From the NCBI GenBank assembly GCA_946223355.1, contig CAMIPB010000006.1, forward strand, positions 15,675 to 79,674: DNA of 64,000 nucleotides, in the 5' to 3' direction. Origin of the DNA: an uncultured Corynebacterium sp. (GTDB lineage Bacteria > Actinomycetota > Actinomycetes > Mycobacteriales > Mycobacteriaceae). Shown here piece by piece: positions 9,444 to 21,996 of the stretch (the first letter of the stretch is position 1; the number at the start of each line of letters is the position of its first letter). The notes beneath the pieces were generated by a model. The model saw nothing but the letters and a program-made list of their open reading frames with translations. It ran no database searches and was not told the origin of the DNA. A program made the position numbers and the translations under genes.

Positions 9444-10536
9444 AGAGTGACATCTGAACCTCTACAGCAGATGTCGGCCAAGTGTCCGGATTTCCGCAGC
9501 ACTCTTCGAAGTCATCTTCGCCTCCTCCAGCATCCTCACCATAGAAAACCCTGATTTTTCCGTCTAGGTAGGTCGGAAAAGTCCTTTCGGTTGAACATTT
9601 TCGGAGGTACGAAATCGTCTCCCGATACTGGTGGGCCACGCTGCAATGCTTTCGAAATGCATCGTCAATTGCAACCGCGAGTTGCGCCGGAGACAACCCA
9701 TTGTTGATACGCACGCAACTTTCTAGCCATAAGTCATAAGCAAAATTCTCTTCCCTCACCACCGCATGCGTTACCCCACCAGCTCGGTTTATATCGTTAG
9801 CCAGCTTTCCTAGTTCGAAAAAATTGTCTTCTCGGATATTTAGGCCTACCTCGAGCGAAATAGTAAGTGATTCCCCATCATCGGATATATACACAAAAAA
9901 CGTGCCTTCCCCGGCCATAAAAACCAGGTAAAACTTGTCCGAGGTGTAGTAAATTTCCTTGATTCCCTTAGAACGCAATACAGCTTCAACCCGGTCCAAG
10001 GTCACTGGTTTCACAAACGGGACATCACTCTCGCCGAAAAGCTCTGTGATGCCCTCGGGCAAACTAAGTAGTTCAGGGAACTCCTCGAGCAGATCTGCAA
10101 AGGCTCCATGAGCAGCCGCAAATCCCCCTGATATCGCGGTGTGCAGCTGCGCTTCAGTCATACCGATACGAGTGGCATAACGCGATTTTAATGACAACTC
10201 CAGCTTGCCTTCGTCATCCAAAGAATAATGAATCTGCGGCCAGGCCGTTCCCCGATTGCGCCTCATGATCTGATGGAGCAAATCATTCTCGCGTGATGCA
10301 TCAAGCGCCACCCAAGGGCGTGCGTCCACCATCAGGAAAGGATCCAGTTGATCATATAAGGCAACTTCCGCGAGAAATGGCTTGAATCCGACGAGGATGC
10401 GATCTTCAAATTCTCCACTCATCTCAAAATGAAAGCCCAATTTAGTAAGCGTTTCCATGATCCGCTCTACGTTTACTGGGCGTACCTTATCCGCACTATC
10501 CAATCCATCAGCCGAATTAAATGAATTTTCTTTCAT
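9400..10536 (-). CDS. Tandem YbjN-domain protein with an acidic Cys-containing C-terminal tail
   Basis: Two repeated modules of about 140 aa resemble the YbjN/T3SS-chaperone-like fold (...LGFHFEMSGEFEDRILVGF... and ...IKEIYYTSDKFYLVFMAGEGTFFVYISDDG...). Start set at the ATG at 10536, preceded by a GAGGAG RBS; the track start at 10548 is a GTG. Confidence 0.45.
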   Translation of the reverse strand: MKENSFNSADGLDSADKVRPVNVERIMETLTKLGFHFEMSGEFEDRILVGFKPFLAEVALYDQLDPFLMVDARPWVALDASRENDLLHQIMRRNRGTAWPQIHYSLDDEGKLELSLKSRYATRIGMTEAQLHTAISGGFAAAHGAFADLLEEFPELLSLPEGITELFGESDVPFVKPVTLDRVEAVLRSKGIKEIYYTSDKFYLVFMAGEGTFFVYISDDGESLTISLEVGLNIREDNFFELGKLANDINRAGGVTHAVVREENFAYDLWLESCVRINNGLSPAQLAVAIDDAFRKHCSVAHQYRETISYLRKCSTERTFPTYLDGKIRVFYGEDAGGGEDDFEECCGNPDTWPTSAVEVQMSLFADDENSEERKDGA

Positions 10537-11035
10537 CACATCCACCACTCCTCACATGTTTGTTACCTTCTCCGGGCTGACGAAGACAAAGATAAGCGAC
10601 AGGCTAGACATGAGTTTTCTTCATTCGAACATTAATTTCGAAAACTATCTGGCACCCCATAAACTTTCACACCTTCAAATTTTGAAAGTTTCGGTAGAAG
10701 TTTGATCTACTCTACGTCGTGTTCTCCCCAACCCCAGCAAACTAATTCCCCACTGAGCTGCATTAACTTCCAGCAAGACCGTATCCCCCGCCTCTCCCGC
10801 AGCCTCCTCGGCTTTCGTTCAGTGTTTTTGAATAACCGCAACGTTTTAGACTTGAACTTGAGGCTCTTTATGCTTCGCCTGATCACCGGAATGAAGTGAG
10901 AATTGAACTAAATCCAACTGTAGCTCTTCGGATTTTGAACTAGAATGAATTTGTAGCGTGATGGAAAGTAAAAAACTGTGAAACAATAATGCAACTGGAT
11001 TCAATCCCGAAACAACGTGAAGGAAAACTCTCAGA

Positions 11036-11371
11036 ATGCCTAAGAAATTCCCCGAAAGTCTCAAGAAAAAGGTGGTTCATTACTACTTGTCGTCCCCCGA
11101 TATCACATACGAAGCAGCCGCTAGAAAGTTCGATATCTCGATTTCATCGGCGCGCCTCTGGGTGAAAAAGCACGAAGACTCCCATGTCTCTGAACCGCCT
11201 GAAATTTCCCAAGCCGATGAGAACTCACAATCACCCCATTTGGAAACTACTCACCCAACTAACGGTGCAAACGAGGTGCATCTCTCGCCAGCTCTGCACA
11301 TAAACGGCAACGCCTATTTCCAAAATTCAACAATTCAAGCGGTTAACAACCATCACCCTAAGAGAATTTAA
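11036..11371 (+). CDS. HTH protein resembling the N-terminus of an IS3-family transposase OrfA (likely IS remnant)
   Basis: MPKKFPESLKKKVVHYYL...AAARKFDISISSARLWVKKHED is typical of the IS3/IS911 OrfA HTH. The remainder is diverged and low-complexity, and there is no OrfB or inverted repeats. AT-rich context next to the CRISPR array. Confidence 0.4.
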   Translation: MPKKFPESLKKKVVHYYLSSPDITYEAAARKFDISISSARLWVKKHEDSHVSEPPEISQADENSQSPHLETTHPTNGANEVHLSPALHINGNAYFQNSTIQAVNNHHPKRI

Positions 11372-11484
11372 TGAAATTTAAACCGTGACAGCAGGGAGCT
11401 ACGGCGCTTAGTTCCATCGCAAATATTTGCTCCAGCAACGCACTTTGATACCCTAGCCACAGCGTAGGAGGTTCACTTTCCATC

Positions 11485-14403
11485 GCTGGGGTTCAATTCT
11501 CTAAACCCCTGATAGACTTCACCCTCAGGCAGGCCATAAAATTCCGCAGCTGGGGTTCAATTCTCTAAACCCCTGATAGACTTCCCCAAACCAAAGTAAA
11601 GACAATAAGCAGGCTGGGGTTCAATTCTCTAAACCCCTGATAGACTTCCTGCTGCTAAGGCTGGGCTTGATGTTCAGCTGGGGTTCAATTCTCTAAACCC
11701 CTGATAGACTTCAAGTTAAGGAACCGATCCGCTGATAGCTGCTGGGGTTCAATTCTCTAAACCCCTGATAGACTTCTAGCCTGCTCTGACCAGGCCACTG
11801 ATACGCTGGGGTTCAATTCTCTAAACCCCTGATAGACTTCGATACCCGGCACCGACTCGTCGATTGTGGCTGGGGTTCAATTCTCTAAACCCCTGATAGA
11901 CTTCATGTGGCGTAAACAGTTGGCCGACCAAGGCTGGGGTTCAATTCTCTAAACCCCTGATAGACTTCGAAGCCTAACGGCGCCCCGGATGAGATTGCTG
12001 GGGTTCAATTCTCTAAACCCCTGATAGACTTCCCCGCCAGCGCCGCCTGCTCAATGGCACGCTGGGGTTCAATTCTCTAAACCCCTGATAGACTTCGGGT
12101 GGTTGTAGTGGCTTTTGTCGATACGCTGGGGTTCAATTCTCTAAACCCCTGATAGACTTCACGCAATAAGCTGAGCGCCCGGTTGCCCGCTGGGGTTCAA
12201 TTCTCTAAACCCCTGATAGACTTCAGACACATTCCTGCCGCATTGGTCATGGGCTGGGGTTCAATTCTCTAAACCCCTGATAGACTTCGTTCGGCCACAC
12301 TGCCGCCGAATTTCGGGCTGGGGTTCAATTCTCTAAACCCCTGATAGACTTCGAGCGATACGAGGACCGCGTCACCCTCTGCTGGGGTTCAATTCTCTAA
12401 ACCCCTGATAGACTTCTGAGCAGTACACCTGCGATTGCCCACACGCTGGGGTTCAATTCTCTAAACCCCTGATAGACTTCACCCCTGACTACATCGGGGC
12501 GTCCTCTAGCTGGGGTTCAATTCTCTAAACCCCTGATAGACTTCCTCCGGGTGTCCTTCCACCTGCCAGATGGCTGGGGTTCAATTCTCTAAACCCCTGA
12601 TAGACTTCAACGACCTATTCCCACAGTTCGGCATCAGCTGGGGTTCAATTCTCTAAACCCCTGATAGACTTCATGACGTGAAACGGGGCGCGGTCGTCGG
12701 GCTGGGGTTCAATTCTCTAAACCCCTGATAGACTTCCGCTCCACAGTGGCCCGCGCACTACGACGCTGGGGTTCAATTCTCTAAACCCCTGATAGACTTC
12801 AAGTGGAATTCCATAGGCTTTCGCGTAGGGCTGGGGTTCAATTCTCTAAACCCCTGATAGACTTCCTGCCGGCACTATCCCGCGTGCGGAGATGCTGGGG
12901 TTCAATTCTCTAAACCCCTGATAGACTTCACTCGCATGCGCTCCGCTACCGCGTCCAGCTGGGGTTCAATTCTCTAAACCCCTGATAGACTTCCGGTGTA
13001 CCTTACTTGGGCAGTCAGCTGGCTGGGGTTCAATTCTCTAAACCCCTGATAGACTTCCGGTGTACCTTACTTGGGCAGTCAGCTGGCTGGGGTTCAATTC
13101 TCTAAACCCCTGATAGACTTCTAATCGCTGCAACCACAGCAGCAGCGTCCGCTGGGGTTCAATTCTCTAAACCCCTGATAGACTTCGATTCGAGGACACC
13201 CCTGTTTGCGCCCAGCTGGGGTTCAATTCTCTAAACCCCTGATAGACTTCTAATCGCTGCAACCACAGCAGCAGCGTCCGCTGGGGTTCAATTCTCTAAA
13301 CCCCTGATAGACTTCGATTCGAGGACACCCCTGTTTGCGCCCAGCTGGGGTTCAATTCTCTAAACCCCTGATAGACTTCACCGCCTGGGTGTTTACCTCT
13401 GGGTTCTGCTGGGGTTCAATTCTCTAAACCCCTGATAGACTTCAACATGCCTAAAGGAGGTGGACACATGAGCTGGGGTTCAATTCTCTAAACCCCTGAT
13501 AGACTTCATTACCGACCTGGCCAAACATCGACTTGGCTGGGGTTCAATTCTCTAAACCCCTGATAGACTTCAATCGACGCGACGACAAACTATACCCTCG
13601 CTGGGGTTCAATTCTCTAAACCCCTGATAGACTTCCTAACTCAGGGACACACCCTGCGCTCAAGCTGGGGTTCAATTCTCTAAACCCCTGATAGACTTCC
13701 AACCCTCAAATTCGTCAAGTCAATGAAGCTGGGGTTCAATTCTCTAAACCCCTGATAGACTTCAAAGGCAGCGTCTGAGGTGTCTCGAAAGGCTGGGGTT
13801 CAATTCTCTAAACCCCTGATAGACTTCGTCGCCCTTTTCTCCCTTAGGGCCACGGGCTGGGGTTCAATTCTCTAAACCCCTGATAGACTTCAACGCAGCC
13901 GTGACCCCTTGTAAAATCAGCTGGGGTTCAATTCTCTAAACCCCTGATAGACTTCTCGTAGACGGTGGAGTGCTGCTACTAACGCTGGGGTTCAATTCTC
14001 TAAACCCCTGATAGACTTCTTTCGCATGGGCCGGTGGAGATTGCTGCGCTGGGGTTCAATTCTCTAAACCCCTGATAGACTTCGCGCATTCATCGCGCCG
14101 CAAACCGCACAGCTGGGGTTCAATTCTCTAAACCCCTGATAGACTTCTTCATCGATTCCGTTAAGGTCTGACTGTGCTGGGGTTCAATTCTCTAAACCCC
14201 TGATAGACTTCCCCGACAACCTGGCAACCTCGGCATGTGGCTGGGGTTCAATTCTCTAAACCCCTGATAGACTTCTAGCGCCACCGCTTTACCGGTCAGG
14301 ACGGCTGGGGTTCAATTCTCTAAACCCCTGATAGACTTCCCCAGCAGAACATCTGGTGCGAGCTTTCGCTGGGGTTCAATTCTCTAAACCCCTGATAGAC
14401 TTC
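11485..14403 (+). CRISPR. CRISPR array, type II-C: 46 identical 36-nt repeats GCTGGGGTTCAATTCTCTAAACCCCTGATAGACTTC, 45 spacers (42 of 28 nt, 3 of 29 nt)
   Basis: Every repeat and spacer boundary was counted by hand. Period is 64 nt, with 65 nt at three positions. The inferred crRNA strand is + (see findings). No degenerate terminal repeat. Confidence 0.97.
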
Positions 14404-14406
14404 AGT

Positions 14407-14440
14407 GACGCCCAAAAATGGGCGTTTAACTGGAGTTTTT
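14407..14440 (+). terminator. Hairpin ACGCCCA-AAA-TGGGCGT followed after about 10 nt by TTTTTT, between the array and the cas2 stop
   Basis: Perfect 7-bp inverted repeat. Possible terminator for array read-through on the + strand; the U-tract is not immediately adjacent to the stem. Confidence 0.3.
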
Positions 14441-14453
14441 TGGTGATCCTACT

Positions 14454-14795
14454 TTAAAAAATCGTCATTTGTTCGGGTTTTTCTTCATAAGAATCCTCTT
14501 TTGAGTTGGAATATCGAATGGTTTTTGACCATTGGGTGTCAGTGACGGAAAGAATGCGAACATCACCACCAGCCGGAAGGTTTTGTTTAATGGTTTTCAC
14601 TGTTGATGCGATTCGAGAAGCAAGGGGAAAGTACTGGACGTAAACGCTGAATTGGGCGCGACAAAACCCTACATCCTGGAGCATGTTCCGGAATCTAGTA
14701 GCTTCCCGCCGTTCCTTTTTCGTCAGAACCGGTAGGTCAAACATCACTACGCACCACATAGGTTCACTACCTTTCGCCGGCATGACAAACCCCAC
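14454..14795 (-). CDS. cas2: CRISPR-associated endoribonuclease Cas2
   Basis: Cas2 core VVMFDLPVLTKKERREATRFRNMLQDVGF. The real start is probably an internal ATG (MPAKG or MWCVV), giving a small overlap with the cas1 stop. Confidence 0.9.
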   Translation of the reverse strand: MGFVMPAKGSEPMWCVVMFDLPVLTKKERREATRFRNMLQDVGFCRAQFSVYVQYFPLASRIASTVKTIKQNLPAGGDVRILSVTDTQWSKTIRYSNSKEDSYEEKPEQMTIF

Positions 14796-15678
14796 ACCAG
14801 TGTGGAACGACTAGGTCGCGAACTTCGTTCTCAACATAAAGCCCATACTGCTGGGCAAACTCAGAGAAGACGGTAGGTAGTGATTTACCGTCTTTTTGGA
14901 ACGTACCGGCAATTCCCTCGTTCAGGGTTAGTTTTTCTTCCCTAGCCAAACTCTTCAACGGCGCCAACTCAGTGAAAACTATCTGGTCAACCATCGGCCG
15001 GAATGGCTCCATCAAATCATCCACCAAAGCGAAGGAATTAGAACGTCCACGGTGAAACACACCGAGTGCCCCTGACAAACCGGCTGAAACTACCGCCCGT
15101 ATTCCGTGCCCGCGAAGCAACGTGTATCCGTAATCAAGCGCCCCATTAACTCCGTCACCCAAGCCGGGATGTCGACCGTTAAAACCTTGGGTACGTAGCT
15201 TCTGCCAATAAATGCGAGCAGCTAAAGCTTCGGAGTTCTCGGAGTCGCCTGTCTTTACTCCTCGCGAAAGTTCGATCAACCTATTCGATTTTTCACCCGT
15301 TATCGATTGTAGAGCTTCGGACTGACCTCGAATTTTAGCTTGAACTATCCTCTTCCACGCTTGTTTCGTTCTAGGAGTGGACAGCCTTGACTGTGCCCTT
15401 TGACGTGCGCCAATTCTCGTATGCTCCCTCCAAGGGTATGTGCCAGCGACAGGAACATTACGCCAATCACAAACGAGAAGCGCCACATCAGCTTCGCTCA
15501 ACTTAGTCAGCGCTGCACCCGAAATAGTAGTTTGTACCCCGATTAGCACGACTGCAACCTGCACCAACGGAATAGGTACAGGTTTCTCACCATCACGCTG
15601 GACAACGATGTGACCGCGTTCGTACCCAATCTTTCCGATCAAATTTGAACAATCGATTACTCGCCATCCAGCATCCAT
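14767..15678 (-). CDS. cas1: CRISPR-associated integrase Cas1 (type II)
   Basis: 303 aa. Sits directly 3 nt after the cas9 stop, followed by cas2 and the array. Confidence 0.92.
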   Translation of the reverse strand: MDAGWRVIDCSNLIGKIGYERGHIVVQRDGEKPVPIPLVQVAVVLIGVQTTISGAALTKLSEADVALLVCDWRNVPVAGTYPWREHTRIGARQRAQSRLSTPRTKQAWKRIVQAKIRGQSEALQSITGEKSNRLIELSRGVKTGDSENSEALAARIYWQKLRTQGFNGRHPGLGDGVNGALDYGYTLLRGHGIRAVVSAGLSGALGVFHRGRSNSFALVDDLMEPFRPMVDQIVFTELAPLKSLAREEKLTLNEGIAGTFQKDGKSLPTVFSEFAQQYGLYVENEVRDLVVPHWCGVCHAGER

Positions 15679-15681
15679 TGG

Positions 15682-18600
15682 TTATCTCACTTTCCAGGAA
15701 ACCGGTAGGTGTGCCGCACTTTCAAGTCTCGGACGGCCAAGTGCATCACGCCGTATCACAGCCACATCGCCCTGTGCTAGCAATGCATTCACTGCAGGTC
15801 GCCACCCCGGAGAATCGACTATTTTTCTCACGTCCTCATTTGAGTCCTTATTTAAGCCCTCAGCGCTAACTTGTACAGGTCGTAGGCGGAACTTAGAGTC
15901 ACTGTAAAAGCCATCCAAACTCCACCTGCGAGTTAAACCGATTTCTTGTTGGAACGTACCAATCTGGCCGGTGTTGAACGAGGCAGGATTGATAAGTAGT
16001 TCGTCATCGACGACAACCCAGCCCAGGTAGGTAGCAGTGCCTTCACGAAGCGCTTTGCGTAGCTTCGCTTCTGCTTGACGCATGGAGATAGTTTGCGGTG
16101 GCAGCTCCACAGAAAACACATCTTTTGTGCGATGTTTAGCTAGATCCACGTTATAGACGCGGAGCATCGCGTAGACAGGTTTCTTTCCTCCGTCGATGCG
16201 ATAAATACGCGCGTGATGGAAACGGCTGAGTTCGGCATAACCCCCGCGAACTTTGATCGCACCGGCATTAACTGGGAAGACTTCAATTTCATCATCTGCA
16301 TTCAGGTGGCTGCCGTTGACTCGGATTGTCCGATCAGGGTCTTCGGGAAGACCGTCTTTCCAGTTAAAATCCGGATGTCTGGTCAGCGCACACCACAATG
16401 CCTCCGTTGCAGCCCGATCGATTGTCTCCGTTGGTAAAGCACTGCCAACCTTTACCCGCGCCAGCTCACCAATTGTGTCCTCGTGAACACGGCCATTGCC
16501 AACACGTAAACGTAAATTACGTTTAACAGCGATTCGGTCCTCCGATAGAGCTTTCTGCAGCATCGGAGCCAAGATACTCATCTGTTTCTTCCAGCGATTC
16601 CAAGAAGTTCGATGCGATGCAGTTCCGCCAGAGTATTCCTTCCACTGATTCGTGCCGTTGGTGTACTCGGCCGATTCCCTTAGGTTATTGCGCGTTGCGA
16701 GGGCCTCCGCAACAAATGGAGTTGTTAAACAAATGACAGCGGCATCTACCGCATGGTGGCGGCGATCTAAACGGGACTTCCCTGGCCCATCAATAAACTG
16801 CAACTTGCCTGAAATACCTGCAGCCCTACGAGCTGAAGCGGTTAAGGAACCACGATAAACATTGACCTTGGTTTCTTCATCTGAAAAACGCTGGGCAATA
16901 CGGCCACGCAACTCATTTGCCATCCAAGCCACGGATTCCATAGAGCGAGCATCGATAGGATCGTCCACTGTAGTGCGTTTAAATCGTGAGACTACCTCAC
17001 TGCGGAACTTATTAAATTCCGCTTTCTTCATGCCGCGGTCTTCGTTCCAGTGCTTTGTACGTTCAACAGCTTCCTTCACACTCACGCCCGGAATAGCGCT
17101 CTGTTCAGCCCAAACGGAGAACACAGCATTGGACTTGGAATGGTTGCACCTGTGACACACTGCAACGAGGTTCTCCCGCCTATTAGTCGAACCCTCCCCT
17201 TTGCGCGGGACTATGTGATCCATTTCTGAATTGTGGAATGTAATTGGAGAACCGCAATAAGCGCACTGGCCGTTTTGGCGCTGTACTGATTGGTAACGCC
17301 ACAATGCAGCACGGGAATGCTTGACATCATTGCCAAACTTGTCACTGAGTTCCGCGAACAACTCGCGGTTTTTCTGCGCTCTTCTATTGTTATCGCGATC
17401 AATTTTCCGAGCCTTGGATTCCGAAATAAAGCCATCACGTACGTGCTCGATCACGATGCGCTCAGGCGCGCCCCACTCATCCGTAGCGGCTTCGATCCAT
17501 CTCGCAACTTCCTTTAGAACACGATCGACTGCGGGATTGCCCACGGGCTCACCGATTCGCGGTGAAGGCGGAGCCCAATCTTTGGGAATACCAAACTCAT
17601 TCTTCCTGGCAGTATAGAGGTCTACACCATCGCTGATCATTCGCTCAGTCAATCGACGAAGTGTGTCTTCGCTATACGCTGCCCGACCAATAGGTAGATG
17701 GAGAAGATCAAGTTTTTCGTGTTCATCATCGGAGATCGAGGCGAAATATGCCCGAACACTAGCGCCTTCTTCAGTATCCAAATCAAGTGAGTCCGCGTTG
17801 GACAATGCTTTCAACATCGCTGCCCTATCAGCATCGGATACTTCTTTCCACCACTTCCCTAGTGACTTTGGCTTCGCAGATTCAATCACCCGATTGGTGT
17901 CATGGACCGGTGGACGAGCACCTGCCCGCTCACCGTCATCGGTCATTTTCGCAGTACCCTGAAGCTGGCCACGGTCAATTCCCAACAGTTCAGCGATGGC
18001 AAGCCACGTTGGTTCAACCTTGGCTGGCAGGTTTACCAGATGATCGAAAACCAACTTTCGTTGATTATTGGTGAGCTCAAAAGAATTCTCCCCGTCTCGG
18101 ATTCGGAGATTGCCAATGAGCGCTGCAATTCGATACCGCTGGAAAGCATCTGACGCTTTGAGTGCTCGGTCTAACGATGGCTGCAGTGGATCTTTACCGA
18201 CCCTTCCAACCTGAGCACCCTTTGGGGATTCTGCATCAAATACAAGATCGATGATCTTCTTGCGCAGTGAATCATCGATCCCCTGTTTCTCACAGATCTT
18301 GTTGATTTCTCGTGCGTGATCGACCTGCTGCAAGCGAGCGGAAATAAGCGCATGATTGATTTCGTCTTGAGGCTTCTTTTTGTCCTTGCCTTTTCCACCA
18401 CCACGAAGGCGATCAACCCCAAGGTTTGCGCACATCACCACCTGAGCAACAGTGGCTTCATCGGGGATCTTAATCTTCTTCGATTCCTCGATGCCCTTCT
18501 TAATCTCGACAAACGCATCACTCGGTTCGCCTGGTGCATAGAGCGAACGGACTTTCTTGTAGGGATTTCGCCAACCGCGGTGATGCGCGATATGCCGAAT

Positions 18601-18984
18601 AGCCAAAGAAAGCATCTCACCTTGTTCGGCTTCATTTTCTGTTCGTTCCGTGGCTAGGCGGACTCGTGCTTTCCACGGAAGATAAGGATCCTCGTAGGAC
18701 TCGTTTGGAAGGGTCTTCCAATCTTGTTCAACCAAGAATTTCTCGAGCCTAACAATGCGCTTCTTCCGGCGCCGATAAAGTCTACGAGTACGACGAGCAA
18801 CTCCGGACGAGGCCAACCTAGTTGTCGCAGACTTCTGCTGGTCTGGATCGAGACCCGAATCATGAATATGAGAAACCAAGCTCAAAATTCCTGCTGGCAT
18901 ATCTTTTTCATCAAGTTCAATGGCTGCGAAACCGATTGAATGGGTACCAACGTCAATTCCCGCAACATAACGCCGCGAATCCAT
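15682..18984 (-). CDS. cas9: Cas9 (type II-C, about 1100 aa)
   Basis: RuvC-I IDVGTHSIGFA, Arg-rich bridge helix RRTRRLYRRRKKR, HNH CAYCGSPITFHNSEMDHIVPR...AVCHRCNHSKSN, and RuvC-III RHHAVDAAVI. Start set at the ATG at 18984 (MDSRRYVAGIDVGT) behind a GAGAGGA RBS. The track start at 19020 lies inside the tracrRNA terminator stem. Confidence 0.95.
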   Translation of the reverse strand: MDSRRYVAGIDVGTHSIGFAAIELDEKDMPAGILSLVSHIHDSGLDPDQQKSATTRLASSGVARRTRRLYRRRKKRIVRLEKFLVEQDWKTLPNESYEDPYLPWKARVRLATERTENEAEQGEMLSLAIRHIAHHRGWRNPYKKVRSLYAPGEPSDAFVEIKKGIEESKKIKIPDEATVAQVVMCANLGVDRLRGGGKGKDKKKPQDEINHALISARLQQVDHAREINKICEKQGIDDSLRKKIIDLVFDAESPKGAQVGRVGKDPLQPSLDRALKASDAFQRYRIAALIGNLRIRDGENSFELTNNQRKLVFDHLVNLPAKVEPTWLAIAELLGIDRGQLQGTAKMTDDGERAGARPPVHDTNRVIESAKPKSLGKWWKEVSDADRAAMLKALSNADSLDLDTEEGASVRAYFASISDDEHEKLDLLHLPIGRAAYSEDTLRRLTERMISDGVDLYTARKNEFGIPKDWAPPSPRIGEPVGNPAVDRVLKEVARWIEAATDEWGAPERIVIEHVRDGFISESKARKIDRDNNRRAQKNRELFAELSDKFGNDVKHSRAALWRYQSVQRQNGQCAYCGSPITFHNSEMDHIVPRKGEGSTNRRENLVAVCHRCNHSKSNAVFSVWAEQSAIPGVSVKEAVERTKHWNEDRGMKKAEFNKFRSEVVSRFKRTTVDDPIDARSMESVAWMANELRGRIAQRFSDEETKVNVYRGSLTASARRAAGISGKLQFIDGPGKSRLDRRHHAVDAAVICLTTPFVAEALATRNNLRESAEYTNGTNQWKEYSGGTASHRTSWNRWKKQMSILAPMLQKALSEDRIAVKRNLRLRVGNGRVHEDTIGELARVKVGSALPTETIDRAATEALWCALTRHPDFNWKDGLPEDPDRTIRVNGSHLNADDEIEVFPVNAGAIKVRGGYAELSRFHHARIYRIDGGKKPVYAMLRVYNVDLAKHRTKDVFSVELPPQTISMRQAEAKLRKALREGTATYLGWVVVDDELLINPASFNTGQIGTFQQEIGLTRRWSLDGFYSDSKFRLRPVQVSAEGLNKDSNEDVRKIVDSPGWRPAVNALLAQGDVAVIRRDALGRPRLESAAHLPVSWKVR

Positions 18985-19000
18985 GAAATGTCCTCTCGGA

Positions 19001-19092
19001 TAGAAAAAGACCGACGCCATAAGGCGCCGGCCGGAGCATTCAGTTCCGCTAACTAGGCGAAACCTTACTGAGGTTCAATTCTCGTTTTAGAG
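19001..19092 (-). ncRNA. Candidate tracrRNA: anti-repeat GAGAAUUGAACCUCAG, a nexus-like UAAGGUUUCGCCUAGUUAGCGG, and a terminator CCGGCGCC-UUAU-GGCGUCGG-UCUUUUUC
   Basis: Top-strand 19069..19084 GGTTCAATTCTC duplicates the repeat core. The minus-strand RNA would pair 16 bp with the 5' end of the +strand crRNA repeat (CUGGGGUUCAAUUCUC). Possible sigma70-like promoter TTGCAC-N17-TAAACT on the minus strand at about 19095..19125. Confidence 0.6.
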
Positions 19093-19155
19093 TTTAACAA
19101 TCAAATTTCTGTGGTGCAAGTGAAAACCTGAATAAATTCTGTGTACGATGTAGTG

Positions 19156-21996
19156 CTACTTCACCACCAGATTCACCATACGACCAGGCACGACAATCTC
19201 CTTGACAACGTTCTTGCCTTCGGCGAGTTCCTGGACGCGAGAGTCGGCCTTGGCGATACCTGCGATGGTGTCCTTATCGGCGTCGGCAGGCACCATGATG
19301 CGGGCCTTGACCTTGCCATTGATCTGGACTGGCACCTCCACCTCATCATCCACGAGCCACTTGTCTTCATAGGTTGGGAAGTCCTCGAAGGTGATGGTGT
19401 CGGTGTTGCCCAGGCGCTTCCAGAGTTCCTCAGCGATGTGTGGGGCAACGGGGGAGGCCATGATGACCAATGGCTTGACGGCGTCGATAGGCGCCTGGGC
19501 CTTGGAGTAGGTCTTGGTGAGGTAATTGACGTACTCAATGAGCTTGGCCACCACGGTATTAAGACGCAGGTGCTCGTAGTCATCACGCACACCGGCGACG
19601 GTACGGTGCAGAGCCTTCAGGTCTTCATCGGAAAGCTGCTGTTCAGTGACGTTAAGCTCACCGGTCTCCTCATTGACCACAAGACGCCACAGGCGCTGCA
19701 AGAAGCGCTGCGCACCCACGACGTCTTTGGTGGCCCATGGGCGAGAGGTATCCAATGGACCCATAGACATCTCGTAAACGCGCAGGGTATCGGCACCATA
19801 GTCGCGGCAGATCTCGTCAGGGGAGACGGAGTTCTTCAGCGACTTACCCATCTTGCCGTATTCCTGGTTAACCTCTTCGCCCTGGTAGAAGAACTTGCCG
19901 TCCTTTTCTTCTACTTCTTCAGCAGGGACGTAAACACCACGGGAATCGGTGTAGGCATAAGCCTGGATGTACCCCTGGTTGAACAGGCGGCGGTAAGGCT
20001 CCTTGGAGGAAACGTGGCCCAGGTCAAAAAGCACCTTGTGCCAGAAACGAGCGTAGAGCAGGTGAAGGACCGCGTGCTCAACGCCGCCGACGTAGAGATC
20101 CAAGCCGCCGGGATCATTAGCGCCGTACTTGTCTGGGCGCGGACCAGTCCAGTAACGCTCGTTTTCAATGTCCACGAACTTCTCGTCGTTGGTGGGATCA
20201 ACATAACGCAGCTGGTACCAAGAAGAACCTGCCCACTGAGGCATGACGTTGGTATCGCGGAAGTAGGTCTTCGGACCATCACCGAGGTCGAGTTCCACCT
20301 CAACCCATTCGCACGCCTTTGCCAGTGGAGGCTGCGGCTCGGTGTTGGAATCATCCGGGTCAAAGGAGACTGGCTTGTAGTCTTCCACCTCTGGCAGCTG
20401 AACAGGCAGCATGGATTCAGGAATCGGGTGAGCGACACCGTCTGCGTCGTAGACGATAGGGAAGGGCTCGCCCCAGTAGCGCTGGCGGGCAAAGAGCCAG
20501 TCACGTAGCTTGTACTGGACTTTTTCCTGGCCCAGGTTTTGTTGGGACAGCCAATCAATGGTCTGCGCAATGGCCTCCGCTTTGTTTTTGCCGTTCAAAT
20601 CCAGCCCAGAATCGTTCGCGGAGTTCACCAGGGTGCCGTCTTCGGTATAAGCTTCTTCGGCGATATTTCCGCCAGAAACAACTTCCTTGATAGGAAGCCC
20701 GAATTCGGTGGCAAACTCGTAGTCACGGGTATCGTGCGCCGGAACAGCCATGATAGCGCCGGTGCCGTAGCCAGTGAGCACATAGTCTGCGATGAACACT
20801 GGAATCTGCTCGCCGTTAACCGGGTTGGTTGCGGTAACACCGAGGTAAACGCCGGTCTTTTCTTTGTTCTCCTGGCGCTCCAAGTCAGATTTCGCGGCGA
20901 TGTCTGCGCGGTAAGCCTCTACGGCTTCCTTCGGATCATCGTGGCCGTAAGTCCAGCGAGAATCAACGTCCGCGTCATAAGTGACAGGGGAGACGATGGC
21001 GTCGACAAGCTCGTGCTCTGGCGCCAGCACCATGTAGCTCGCGCCAAACAAAGTGTCCGGACGGGTGGTAAATACGGTGATCTTGTGACCCTCGCAGGCG
21101 AAATCCACCTCGGCGCCACGGGAACGGCCAATCCAGTTACGCTGCATGGACTTAACCTTCTCAGGCCAATCCAGCAACTCCAGGTCCTCGAGCAGACGAT
21201 CGGAGTATTCAGTAATGCGCATCATCCACTGCTTCAAATTCTTACGGAAAACAGGGAAATTGCCGCGCTCAGACTTACCGTCCGCGGTTACCTCTTCATT
21301 TGCCAGCACTGTACCCAAACCAGGACACCAGTTCACAGTGGAGTTAGAGAGGTATACCAGGCGGAATTCGTCGATGGCGCTGCGCTTGTCGACGTCGCTT
21401 AGCTCCGCGTATGCACGACCATCCTTCGTGGTGCGGGCTCCGGACTCCAGTTCGCTAATCAATTCCGTGATGGGGCGAGCTTTTTGCTGCTCATCATCGA
21501 ACCAGGAGTTATAAATTTGCAAGAAGATCCACTGAGTCCACTTGTAGAAGTCCTCATCAGTGGTGGCCACTGAACGTCGCGAGTCATGGCCCAAGCCGAG
21601 CGAACCAAGCTGACGGCGCATATTCTCGATGTTCGCCATCGTCGTGGTGCGTGGGTGCGTACCCGTTTGAATCGCGTACTGCTCGGCAGGCAACCCGAAC
21701 GCGTCATAGCCCAAGGTGTGCAGGACGTTCTTGCCTAGCATCCGGTTATAGCGCGCGAATACATCCGTGGCGATATAACCCAGCGGGTGGCCTACGTGCA
21801 GGCCAGCACCGGAAGGGTAAGGGAACATGTCTTGGACAAATAGCTTGTCTTCCGGCAGCGGTGCGTCCGAAGCTAGGTCACCTACTGGGTTCGGCGTGTA
21901 AAAGGTGCCGTTATCCTTCCAGTAGCTCTGCCAGGACTGCTCAATCTCATTTGCCAGCTGCGGCGTATAACGGTAGGACTCGCTTGGGTTTGTCAT
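19156..21996 (-). CDS. leuS: Leucine--tRNA ligase
   Basis: 946 aa. HIGH-type motif [16 protein letters not shown] and KMSKS motif KMGKS, plus the CP1 editing domain region. Confidence 0.97.

Follow-up and report, generated by a model that had tools for sequence, protein, structure and literature searches.

The type II-C locus and the start of cas9

The window, by which we mean the whole 64,000-nt stretch of DNA that was analysed, contains a type II-C CRISPR-Cas9 locus of an uncultured Corynebacterium. Three cas genes on the minus strand, cas9 (15682..18984), cas1 (14767..15678) and cas2 (14454..14795), adjoin a CRISPR array. The ORF map together with NCBIfam identified cas1 as a type II gene of the NMENI class (TIGR03639) and recognised cas2. 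The same evidence revealed neither csn2 nor cas4, which places the locus in subtype II-C. The array (11485..14404, plus strand) is separated from cas2 by a gap of 49 nt and consists of 46 identical 36-nt repeats, GCTGGGGTTCAATTCTCTAAACCCCTGATAGACTTC, which recur with a period of 64 nt and enclose 45 spacers of 28-29 nt. Array and cas genes are convergent, with the plus strand as the crRNA strand, an orientation that we derived from the anti-repeat described below. On the other side of the locus, the gene upstream of cas9 is leuS (NCBIfam), which lies on the same strand and ends at 19156.

The cas9 gene encodes a protein of 1100 aa that scores above the TIGR01865 cut-off and is 100% identical to an 1100-aa database protein (P0001) from metagenome assemblies. 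Its identity to the Cas9 of named Corynebacterium species is 58-67%, including 61% to the enzyme of C. belfantii/diphtheriae, and its closest relative of solved structure is CdCas9 (PDB 6JOO). Two in-frame ATG codons compete for the start of this gene, at 19020 and, 12 codons downstream, at 18984. The first-pass annotation had favoured the latter (MDSRRY...), and this choice is borne out by the identical protein of 1100 aa, by the N-termini of homologues, which start 5-10 residues ahead of the conserved GIDVG motif, like MDSRRYVAGIDVG, and by a ribosome binding site, GAGAGGA (18991..18997, minus strand), located 6 nt before the ATG at 18984. Meanwhile, the ATG at 19020 has no ribosome binding site and falls inside the terminator hairpin of the RNA gene described below, as had also been pointed out: A19020 and U19019 belong to the UUAU loop, and the 3' arm begins with G19018. 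Cas9 starts at 18984, where database gene calls already place it, and the ATG at 19020 is only an artefact of the ORF finder.

A tracrRNA gene upstream of cas9

Every Cas9 requires a small helper RNA, the tracrRNA. We are highly confident that the minus-strand interval 19002..19085 is the gene for this RNA and that it is of the type II-C, CdCas9 kind. The predicted product is about 82 nt long, its ends and its expression being deduced from the DNA.

The most direct evidence is a repeat-like sequence outside the array. The motif GGTTCAATTCTC is present in 46 copies in the array and exactly once elsewhere, at 19072..19083 on the plus strand, while chance is expected to yield about 0.3 matches per window at up to one mismatch. 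The extended repeat-like stretch, ACTGAGGTTCAATTCTC (19067..19083, plus strand), departs from nucleotides 1-17 of the repeat, GCTGGGGTTCAATTCTC, only at positions 1 and 5. A copy of the repeat outside the array had been reported in the first-pass annotation and proved both real and unique, with limits (19069..19084) that were off by 1-3 nt. Read on the minus strand, this stretch becomes the anti-repeat GAGAAUUGAACCUCAGU (19067..19083), the sole such site in 64 kb, which forms an uninterrupted duplex of 17 bp with nucleotides 1-17 of the plus-strand repeat. Pairing with the 5' end of this repeat had been recognised correctly, and the count of 16 bp with one G·U becomes 17 bp with two (G1·U and G5·U). 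The duplex has an energy of -28.5 kcal/mol, as compared to -15.5 kcal/mol with the minus-strand repeat and -19.5 ± 3.2 kcal/mol with shuffled repeats, so that the check by pairing energy also came out in favour of this assignment.

The remaining modules follow in order on the minus strand. Two unpaired nucleotides, AA (19066..19065), separate the anti-repeat from stem loop 1 (19042..19064), composed of GGUUUCGC, the loop CUAGUUA and GCGGAACU. Its stem is described here as 8 bp, seven pairs of which were modelled for covariation, with compensatory changes at 7/7. This element had been called a Spy-like nexus; a stem-loop after UAAG with compensatory changes is indeed present, and its name in the CdCas9 paper is stem loop 1. 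Next comes the single-stranded linker GAAUGCUCC (19033..19041), in which GCUCC is nearly invariant among 12 Corynebacterium copies. Stem loop 2 (19004..19032), supported by the terminator scan, the fold and covariation, doubles as an intrinsic terminator: the scan finds a stem of 10 bp (19032..19009), GGCCGGCGCC-UUAU-GGCGUCGGUC, followed by UUUUUC, with the U-tract at 19008..19004. A GC stem with a U-tract had been proposed at this place, as a stem of 8 bp; the earlier minus-strand transcription of the RNA, otherwise present in the sequence, had skipped four nucleotides (CCGG) ahead of the stem. The U-tract ends 6 nt from the ribosome binding site of cas9 and 19 nt from its ATG, which corrects the figure of 17 nt to the ribosome binding site given before. 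The 84-nt RNA folds as these two hairpins with -33.5 kcal/mol (z = -3.9), and 0/200 shuffles were as good.

Searching 10000..20000 against Rfam at E up to 10 returned chance matches only, with no tracrRNA family among them. The Rfam model stands for another lineage, and the result bears on membership in Rfam, not on function. We turned to relatives of the locus. A genome scan with a single Cas9 sequence found nothing, and a scan with a Cas9 alignment, in one genome per species, recovered 80 actinobacterial loci from Corynebacterium, Actinomyces, Schaalia, Arcanobacterium, Propionibacteriaceae, Bifidobacterium, Gardnerella and others. In nearly all of these 80 loci a 36-nt repeat with a 64-nt period lies downstream of cas2. 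Leaving the array aside, the sequence most similar to the repeat is found 80-200 nt upstream of cas9 in most of these loci; it is on the cas9 strand and typically ends in ...CUCAGU. A first covariance model (R1), which combined 12 Corynebacterium copies with a structure specified by hand, matched the window once, at 19002..19083 on the minus strand with 92 bits; beyond this, its anti-repeat part matched only the array, and weakly. It also yielded one match apiece in 68/80 loci, in most cases 13-160 nt upstream of cas9 and on the same strand. A second model (R2) was rebuilt from the matches in related loci with the window left out; it recovered the window site with 74.1 bits (E = 2.6e-15), and its next match had E = 0.36. 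The covariance search suggested in the first-pass annotation thus singles out this site when the model comes from relatives (R1 and R2), with no match by the Rfam tracrRNA model.

The structure of the RNA is maintained while its sequence changes. An alignment of the 12 copies by MAFFT and RNAalifold was discarded, as it misaligned the outer pairs of stem loop 1 and proposed a spurious hairpin within the anti-repeat, and it was replaced by a model-based alignment. Across the stems of the 69-sequence alignment, 92% of the cells are standard pairs, against 55% with partners shuffled and at most 46% when slid by 1-3 columns; since the alignment had been fitted to the model, these counts are somewhat favourable to the structure, but the slid controls share that same alignment. 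Compensatory changes on both sides were found at 14/14 modelled pairs, including all seven of stem loop 2, which are 96% paired.

The anti-repeat and the repeat change together as well. In the sample used for duplex covariation (53 loci, among which 31 different 5' ends of the repeat occur), the uninterrupted duplex has a mean length of 14.8 bp with the repeat of the same locus and of 7.1 bp with the repeat of another locus. The type of pair switches at positions 2, 5, 7, 8, 10, 12, 13 and 14; at position 7, G-C, A-U and U-A all occur. In these 53 loci the anti-repeat coevolves with the repeat of its own locus, as is expected of a tracrRNA. Our comparison shows that the actinobacterial II-C clade shares one compact tracrRNA, predicted from its sequences to carry a short anti-repeat of 13-19 bp at the 5' end.

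Putative promoters, orientation and the possible route of cas9 expression

A putative promoter precedes the anti-repeat. It is composed of an extended -10 box, TGtTAAACT (19091..19099, minus strand), and of a -35-like hexamer, TTGCAC (19114..19119, minus strand), 17 nt upstream of it; a hexamer containing TTG is likewise placed in relatives. This promoter agrees with the sigma-70 consensus at 7/12 positions, falls under the threshold of the scanner and was not called by it, so our assignment draws entirely on comparison among loci. The motif TAnnnT ends 19-24 nt before the junction of anti-repeat and stem in about 51/53 loci and is rare elsewhere in the 60 nt examined. At the same place in three related loci (L005, L006 and L013), the last of which carries an identical TAAACT, promoters scoring 10/12 are called by the scanner. 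The -10 box lies 7 nt from the anti-repeat, with a start predicted at about 19085 (+/-2), suggesting that transcription from TTGCAC-17-TGtTAAACT would begin at the first paired base or 1-2 nt from it. Such a start would explain why complementarity to the repeat stops abruptly after 13-19 bp. At the other end, the 10-bp hairpin and its U-tract would terminate the tracrRNA near 19004.

Several observations point to a tracrRNA transcribed from the minus strand and crRNAs from the plus strand. At both positions where the anti-repeat deviates from the repeat, the minus-strand RNA has U in place of C, giving G·U pairs with a plus-strand crRNA and A·C if the orientation is reversed, and these two wobbles are kept in 51/53 and 36/53 related loci. 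The repeats themselves carry a directional signal. An extended -10 box, TGnTAnnnT, occurs in the last 14 nt of the plus strand in 46/51 distinct related repeats and takes the form TGATAGACT in the window. The shorter TAnnnT is found in the last 14 nt of 51/51 distinct repeats. The extended motif has 0 occurrences on the other strand and 0 in the first 22 nt of these 51 repeats. It is thus probable, judging by this motif, that crRNA promoters lie inside the repeats, as in Neisseria and Campylobacter. A probable relic repeat (11421..11456, plus strand), identical to the repeat at 10/36 positions, keeps only TGATACCCT (11446..11454), which falls in register with the -10 box; we checked this register by hand, and the chance of this agreement is about 1 in 1000 at that one register. 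In related loci degenerate repeats lie at the end of the array far from cas2, which is consistent with the entry of new spacers at the last repeat. Protospacer searches aimed at the PAM and at an independent check of the orientation found none, either for the whole array against phage genomes, for three spacer 22-mers against viral contigs, or for the 1365 spacers of all loci against the DNA of all collected loci.

Based on these findings, we propose that crRNAs are transcribed from the plus strand of the array, with the extended -10 box that closes the preceding repeat probably serving as the promoter of each. Repeat nucleotides 1-17 of every crRNA would pair with the 5' end of the tracrRNA. 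Cas9 would then bind this duplex together with both stem loops, the second at its base, and the GCUCC linker between them, as in the crystal structure of CdCas9, and the resulting complex would cleave DNA that matches the spacer.

The position of the terminator has implications for cas9 itself. In 15/15 Corynebacterium loci (the window, 13 GTDB loci and C. belfantii), the model match, which contains the U-tract, ends 13-26 nt before the predicted start of cas9; in other genera this gap is 31-162 nt. An interval of 13-26 nt holds the ribosome binding site and leaves no room for a promoter, suggesting that cas9 is probably transcribed by read-through of the tracrRNA terminator. The sequence of stem loop 2 varies freely, which makes it an unlikely site for a promoter. 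In the window, the stop codon of leuS is 37 nt from the -35 hexamer with no hairpin between them, and transcription of leuS could also run into cas9. We tentatively suggest, with slightly less than even confidence, that the cas9-cas1-cas2 genes of Corynebacterium II-C loci have no promoter of their own and that their mRNA would arise only by read-through from the tracrRNA promoter (in the window, also from leuS). If this is true, the leakiness of one hairpin would set the ratio of tracrRNA to Cas9, and the 5' leader of every cas9 mRNA would contain a complete tracrRNA. We found no paper in the literature on read-through of a tracrRNA terminator into cas9.

The proximity to cas9 also raises the possibility of an element whose main role is in cis: a structured 5' leader, or an attenuator, of the cas9 mRNA instead of a free RNA acting in trans. 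The 19 nt between U-tract and ATG, and the 13-26 nt in 15/15 Corynebacterium loci that are too short for a promoter, fit this view. A leader role is nevertheless compatible with a tracrRNA role, the homologous RNA of CdCas9 serves as a guide scaffold in trans, and Cas9 needs a tracrRNA for which the window offers no other candidate; we regard a mainly cis-acting element as very improbable. It is very unlikely, in our judgement, that the site is a decayed orphan repeat next to the terminator hairpin of leuS and gives rise to no functional small RNA. Such a reading could draw on the end of leuS at 19156, on the same strand and without another terminator before the hairpin, and on the weakness of the window promoter by consensus. 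It is countered by the recurrence of the whole module, compensatory changes included, upstream of cas9 in loci whose upstream sequence differs (a stop-to-stop ORF scan of the upstream neighbours returns shadow ORFs in this GC-rich DNA and shows only that these sequences differ). Moreover, the anti-repeat follows the repeat of its own locus, the -10 box stands at a fixed distance, and the orthologous RNA is a working Cas9 guide.

Two further explanations place the tracrRNA elsewhere or read it from the other strand. At 10898..10909 (plus strand), 575 nt from the array, GAGAATTGAACT offers a 12-nt match with one wobble-compatible change, on a strand able to pair with plus-strand crRNA, and could be taken for the tracrRNA or for a second one. 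However, about 0.3 such matches per window are expected by chance, and its duplex, at -19.3 kcal/mol, is no stronger than the average for shuffled repeats (-19.5 kcal/mol). The site also has no CCUCAGU end abutting a stem loop 1, no match by R1 or R2 at E up to 10, and no counterpart at that place in relatives; we rejected it as a chance match and leave it an extremely small probability. Practically negligible is the probability of a reversed orientation, in which minus-strand crRNAs would be co-directional with the cas genes and the partner RNA would come from the plus strand at 19067..19083. In its favour, arrays that run in the direction of the cas genes are common, and by type II-A logic the degenerate repeats far from cas2 would mark the trailer. 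This arrangement would, however, turn both differences from the repeat into A·C mismatches and weaken the duplex from -28.5 to -15.5 kcal/mol. It would pair the 3' end of the repeat, an end that mature type II crRNAs lose, and its plus-strand continuation runs antisense into leuS without hairpins or a terminator. The -10 motif of the repeats is likewise on the plus strand only, CdCas9 functions with the repeat read as ACUGGGG..., and transcription of II-C arrays is known to proceed towards the cas genes, new spacers being gained at the last repeat (PMC3737331, PMC12080349). We thus retain the minus-strand tracrRNA at 19002..19085 and the plus-strand crRNAs.

Kinship with CdCas9 and other known systems

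The closest characterised relative of this RNA is the guide scaffold of CdCas9, whose sgRNA, present in the structure PDB 6JOO, supports cleavage (Hirano et al. 2019, PMC6488586). The published landmarks of this sgRNA are a duplex from A21:U48 to G32:C37, stem loop 1 at A50-G73, a linker at A74-C81 and stem loop 2 at G82-C112, and the repeat part of the guide begins ACUGGGG (PMC6488586). The Cas9 of C. belfantii (P0025) is essentially the 6JOO protein, and in its locus our model matched L081 1070..1158 with 68 bits (sequence ...AACUGAACCUCAGUAAGCAUUGGCUCGUUUCCAAUGUUGAUUGCUCCGCCGGUGCUCCUUAUUUUUAAGGGCGCCGGCUUUUU). When this copy was numbered with a 20-nt guide, a 12-nt repeat and GAAA, every published landmark was reproduced. 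This copy from a locus of the C. diphtheriae complex is, nucleotide for nucleotide, the published CdCas9 sgRNA. Within the CdCas9 linker, G77, C78, U79 and C80/C81 are read, through hydrogen bonds, by Asp977, Arg1070, Asp939 and His1076 (PMC6488586). These residues are conserved in the Cas9 of the window, in which D955, D993, R1086 and H1092 correspond to D939, D977, R1070 and H1076 of CdCas9.

The RNA of the window aligns with the CdCas9 scaffold module by module, with the same module order and similar sizes, and its gene likewise lies directly upstream of cas9 on the same strand. Shared features include the anti-repeat end CCUCAGU, the unpaired A(A), a stem loop 1 loop of the form C-U-N-G-U-U-N, a linker of 8-9 nt ending in UGCUCC, a GC-rich stem loop 2 with a U-tract, and the G·U wobble at the fifth duplex pair. 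Meanwhile, the stem sequences of stem loop 1 differ, the changes being compensated, and stem loop 2 is a 10-bp hairpin with a 4-nt loop (24 nt) in the window and 31 nt long in CdCas9. The anti-repeat reads UUGAACC in the window and CUGAACC in CdCas9, each fitting its own repeat, and the first duplex pair is G·U in the window but A-U in the published sgRNA. The CdCas9 scaffold has been validated by experiment, and the RNA of the window is predicted from its sequence. Placing a tracrRNA directly upstream of cas9, as the first-pass annotation did, agrees with the covariance-model match, the covariation and this homology to CdCas9.

The tracrRNA of the window is real and ordinary: it joins the known CdCas9-type family and holds no surprise for a specialist. 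Genes for tracrRNAs are rarely annotated, and the present one completes the parts list of its locus and fixes the reading direction of its array. It also enables the design of an sgRNA for a Cas9 sharing 61% identity with CdCas9; a candidate modelled on the CdCas9 guide would be N20-22 + GCUGGGGUUCAA-GAAA-UUGAACCUCAGUAAGGUUUCGCCUAGUUAGCGGAACUGAAUGCUCCGGCCGGCGCCUUAUGGCGUCGGUCUUUUU. The general understanding of Cas9 systems is unchanged by these results, and wider interest lies only in the possible coupling of cas9 to its upstream terminator by read-through.

In other Actinobacteria, a type II-C tracrRNA has been predicted upstream of the 5' end of cas9, on the positive strand, in Bifidobacterium bombi (Briner et al. 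2015, PMC4521832). This too is an actinobacterial II-C locus with its tracrRNA on the cas9 strand, and our model matched it weakly (L075, 23 bits). Unlike the window, it has a 37-nt repeat and another anti-repeat sequence, and the two Cas9 proteins are 34% identical. A survey of tracrRNAs in 2013 found no anti-repeat in C. diphtheriae, B. longum, B. dentium and A. cellulolyticus (PMC3737331). The kind of RNA and its position are already known, as tracrRNAs were later supplied for CdCas9 and B. bombi, and the clade-wide comparison closes this historical gap.

The orientation of the array has its counterpart in N. meningitidis and C. jejuni, whose arrays are read opposite to the cas operon (PMC3737331). 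In type II-C systems every repeat carries a promoter, and it is at the last repeat that new spacers are inserted (PMC12080349). The array direction predicted for the window, opposite to that of the cas operon, is that of Neisseria meningitidis and Campylobacter jejuni, and the repeats of the window end in TGATAGACT, an extended -10 box; the Cas9 proteins of these two species are related only distantly to that of the window (E about 1e-15). Repeat:anti-repeat duplexes are longer in Neisseria and Campylobacter. Expression from within the repeats is established there by experiment, whereas in the window it is suggested by the motif.

The tracrRNA of S. pyogenes (type II-A) fulfils the same role and follows the same plan of an anti-repeat, a CUAGU nexus hairpin, one or more 3' hairpins and a terminator. 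Its duplex is longer, bulged and cut by RNase III, and its array is transcribed from a leader promoter, co-directionally with the cas genes. The 17-bp duplex of the window is short for RNase III. Unlike S. pyogenes and the Rfam tracrRNA family, the RNA of the window matches no Rfam family at E up to 10.

Transcription into and out of the tracrRNA gene

The tracrRNA gene lies between leuS and cas9, with all three on the same strand. The 37 nt from the leuS stop codon to the tracrRNA -35 hexamer (window 19120..19156) contain no hairpin. Judging from the sequence, leuS transcripts probably enter the tracrRNA gene and then either stop at its terminator or read through it. On the other side of the gene, the gap between the U-tract and the cas9 start codon is 13-26 nt in every Corynebacterium locus examined, namely the window (18985..19003), the related loci L001-L008, L010, L011, L014, L061 and L072, and the C. 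belfantii locus L081. A separate cas9 promoter therefore cannot fit in this space. The same gap spans 31-162 nt in other genera.

Some related loci deviate from the common layout, in which the tracrRNA is located upstream of cas9. Matches to the tracrRNA covariance model were located beyond the array or elsewhere, and not upstream of cas9, in Gardnerella (L052, L055, L056, L058, L062, L073 and L079), while in five loci (L019, L024, L029, L054 and L068) the match was upstream of cas9 on the opposite strand. Array orientation was inverted relative to cas9 in the Actinomyces loci L024, L025 and L027. The model retrieved no tracrRNA copy at E<=0.01 in 12 of the 80 loci, among them L033, the sequence of which begins just 41 nt upstream of cas9.

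Array interior and junction with cas2

Three spacers are present in duplicate inside the array, at about window 12990..13350. Spacer CGGTGTACCTTACTTGGGCAGTCAGCTG occurs as two tandem copies, and spacers TAATCGCTGCAACCACAGCAGCAGCGTCC and GATTCGAGGACACCCCTGTTTGCGCCCA recur together as a two-unit block, which suggests recombination or slippage inside the array. The last repeat is separated from the cas2 stop codon by 49 nt (14405..14453). A hairpin in this gap, GACGCCCAAAAATGGGCGT, is bordered by runs of A and of T and could act as a terminator for the convergent transcripts of the cas operon and the array alike.

A probable repeat relic and a repeat-like 12-mer ahead of the array

On the plus strand, a stretch at window 11421..11456 precedes the first repeat by exactly one 64-nt period. 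Its identity to the repeat is only 10/36, but it retains TGATACCCT at 11446..11454, in register with the extended -10 box TGATAGACT of the repeat. This stretch appears to be the remnant of an additional repeat, no longer able to pair with the tracrRNA but with a putative -10 box that would still drive the oldest spacer (11457..11484). Also on the plus strand, a second site resembling the repeat, a 12-mer with one mismatch (GAGAATTGAACT, 10898..10909), lies 575 nt from the array; it was judged a chance match. For the decayed, promoter-keeping repeat proposed at 11421..11456, a similar strategy has been described in type II-C arrays (PMC12080349).
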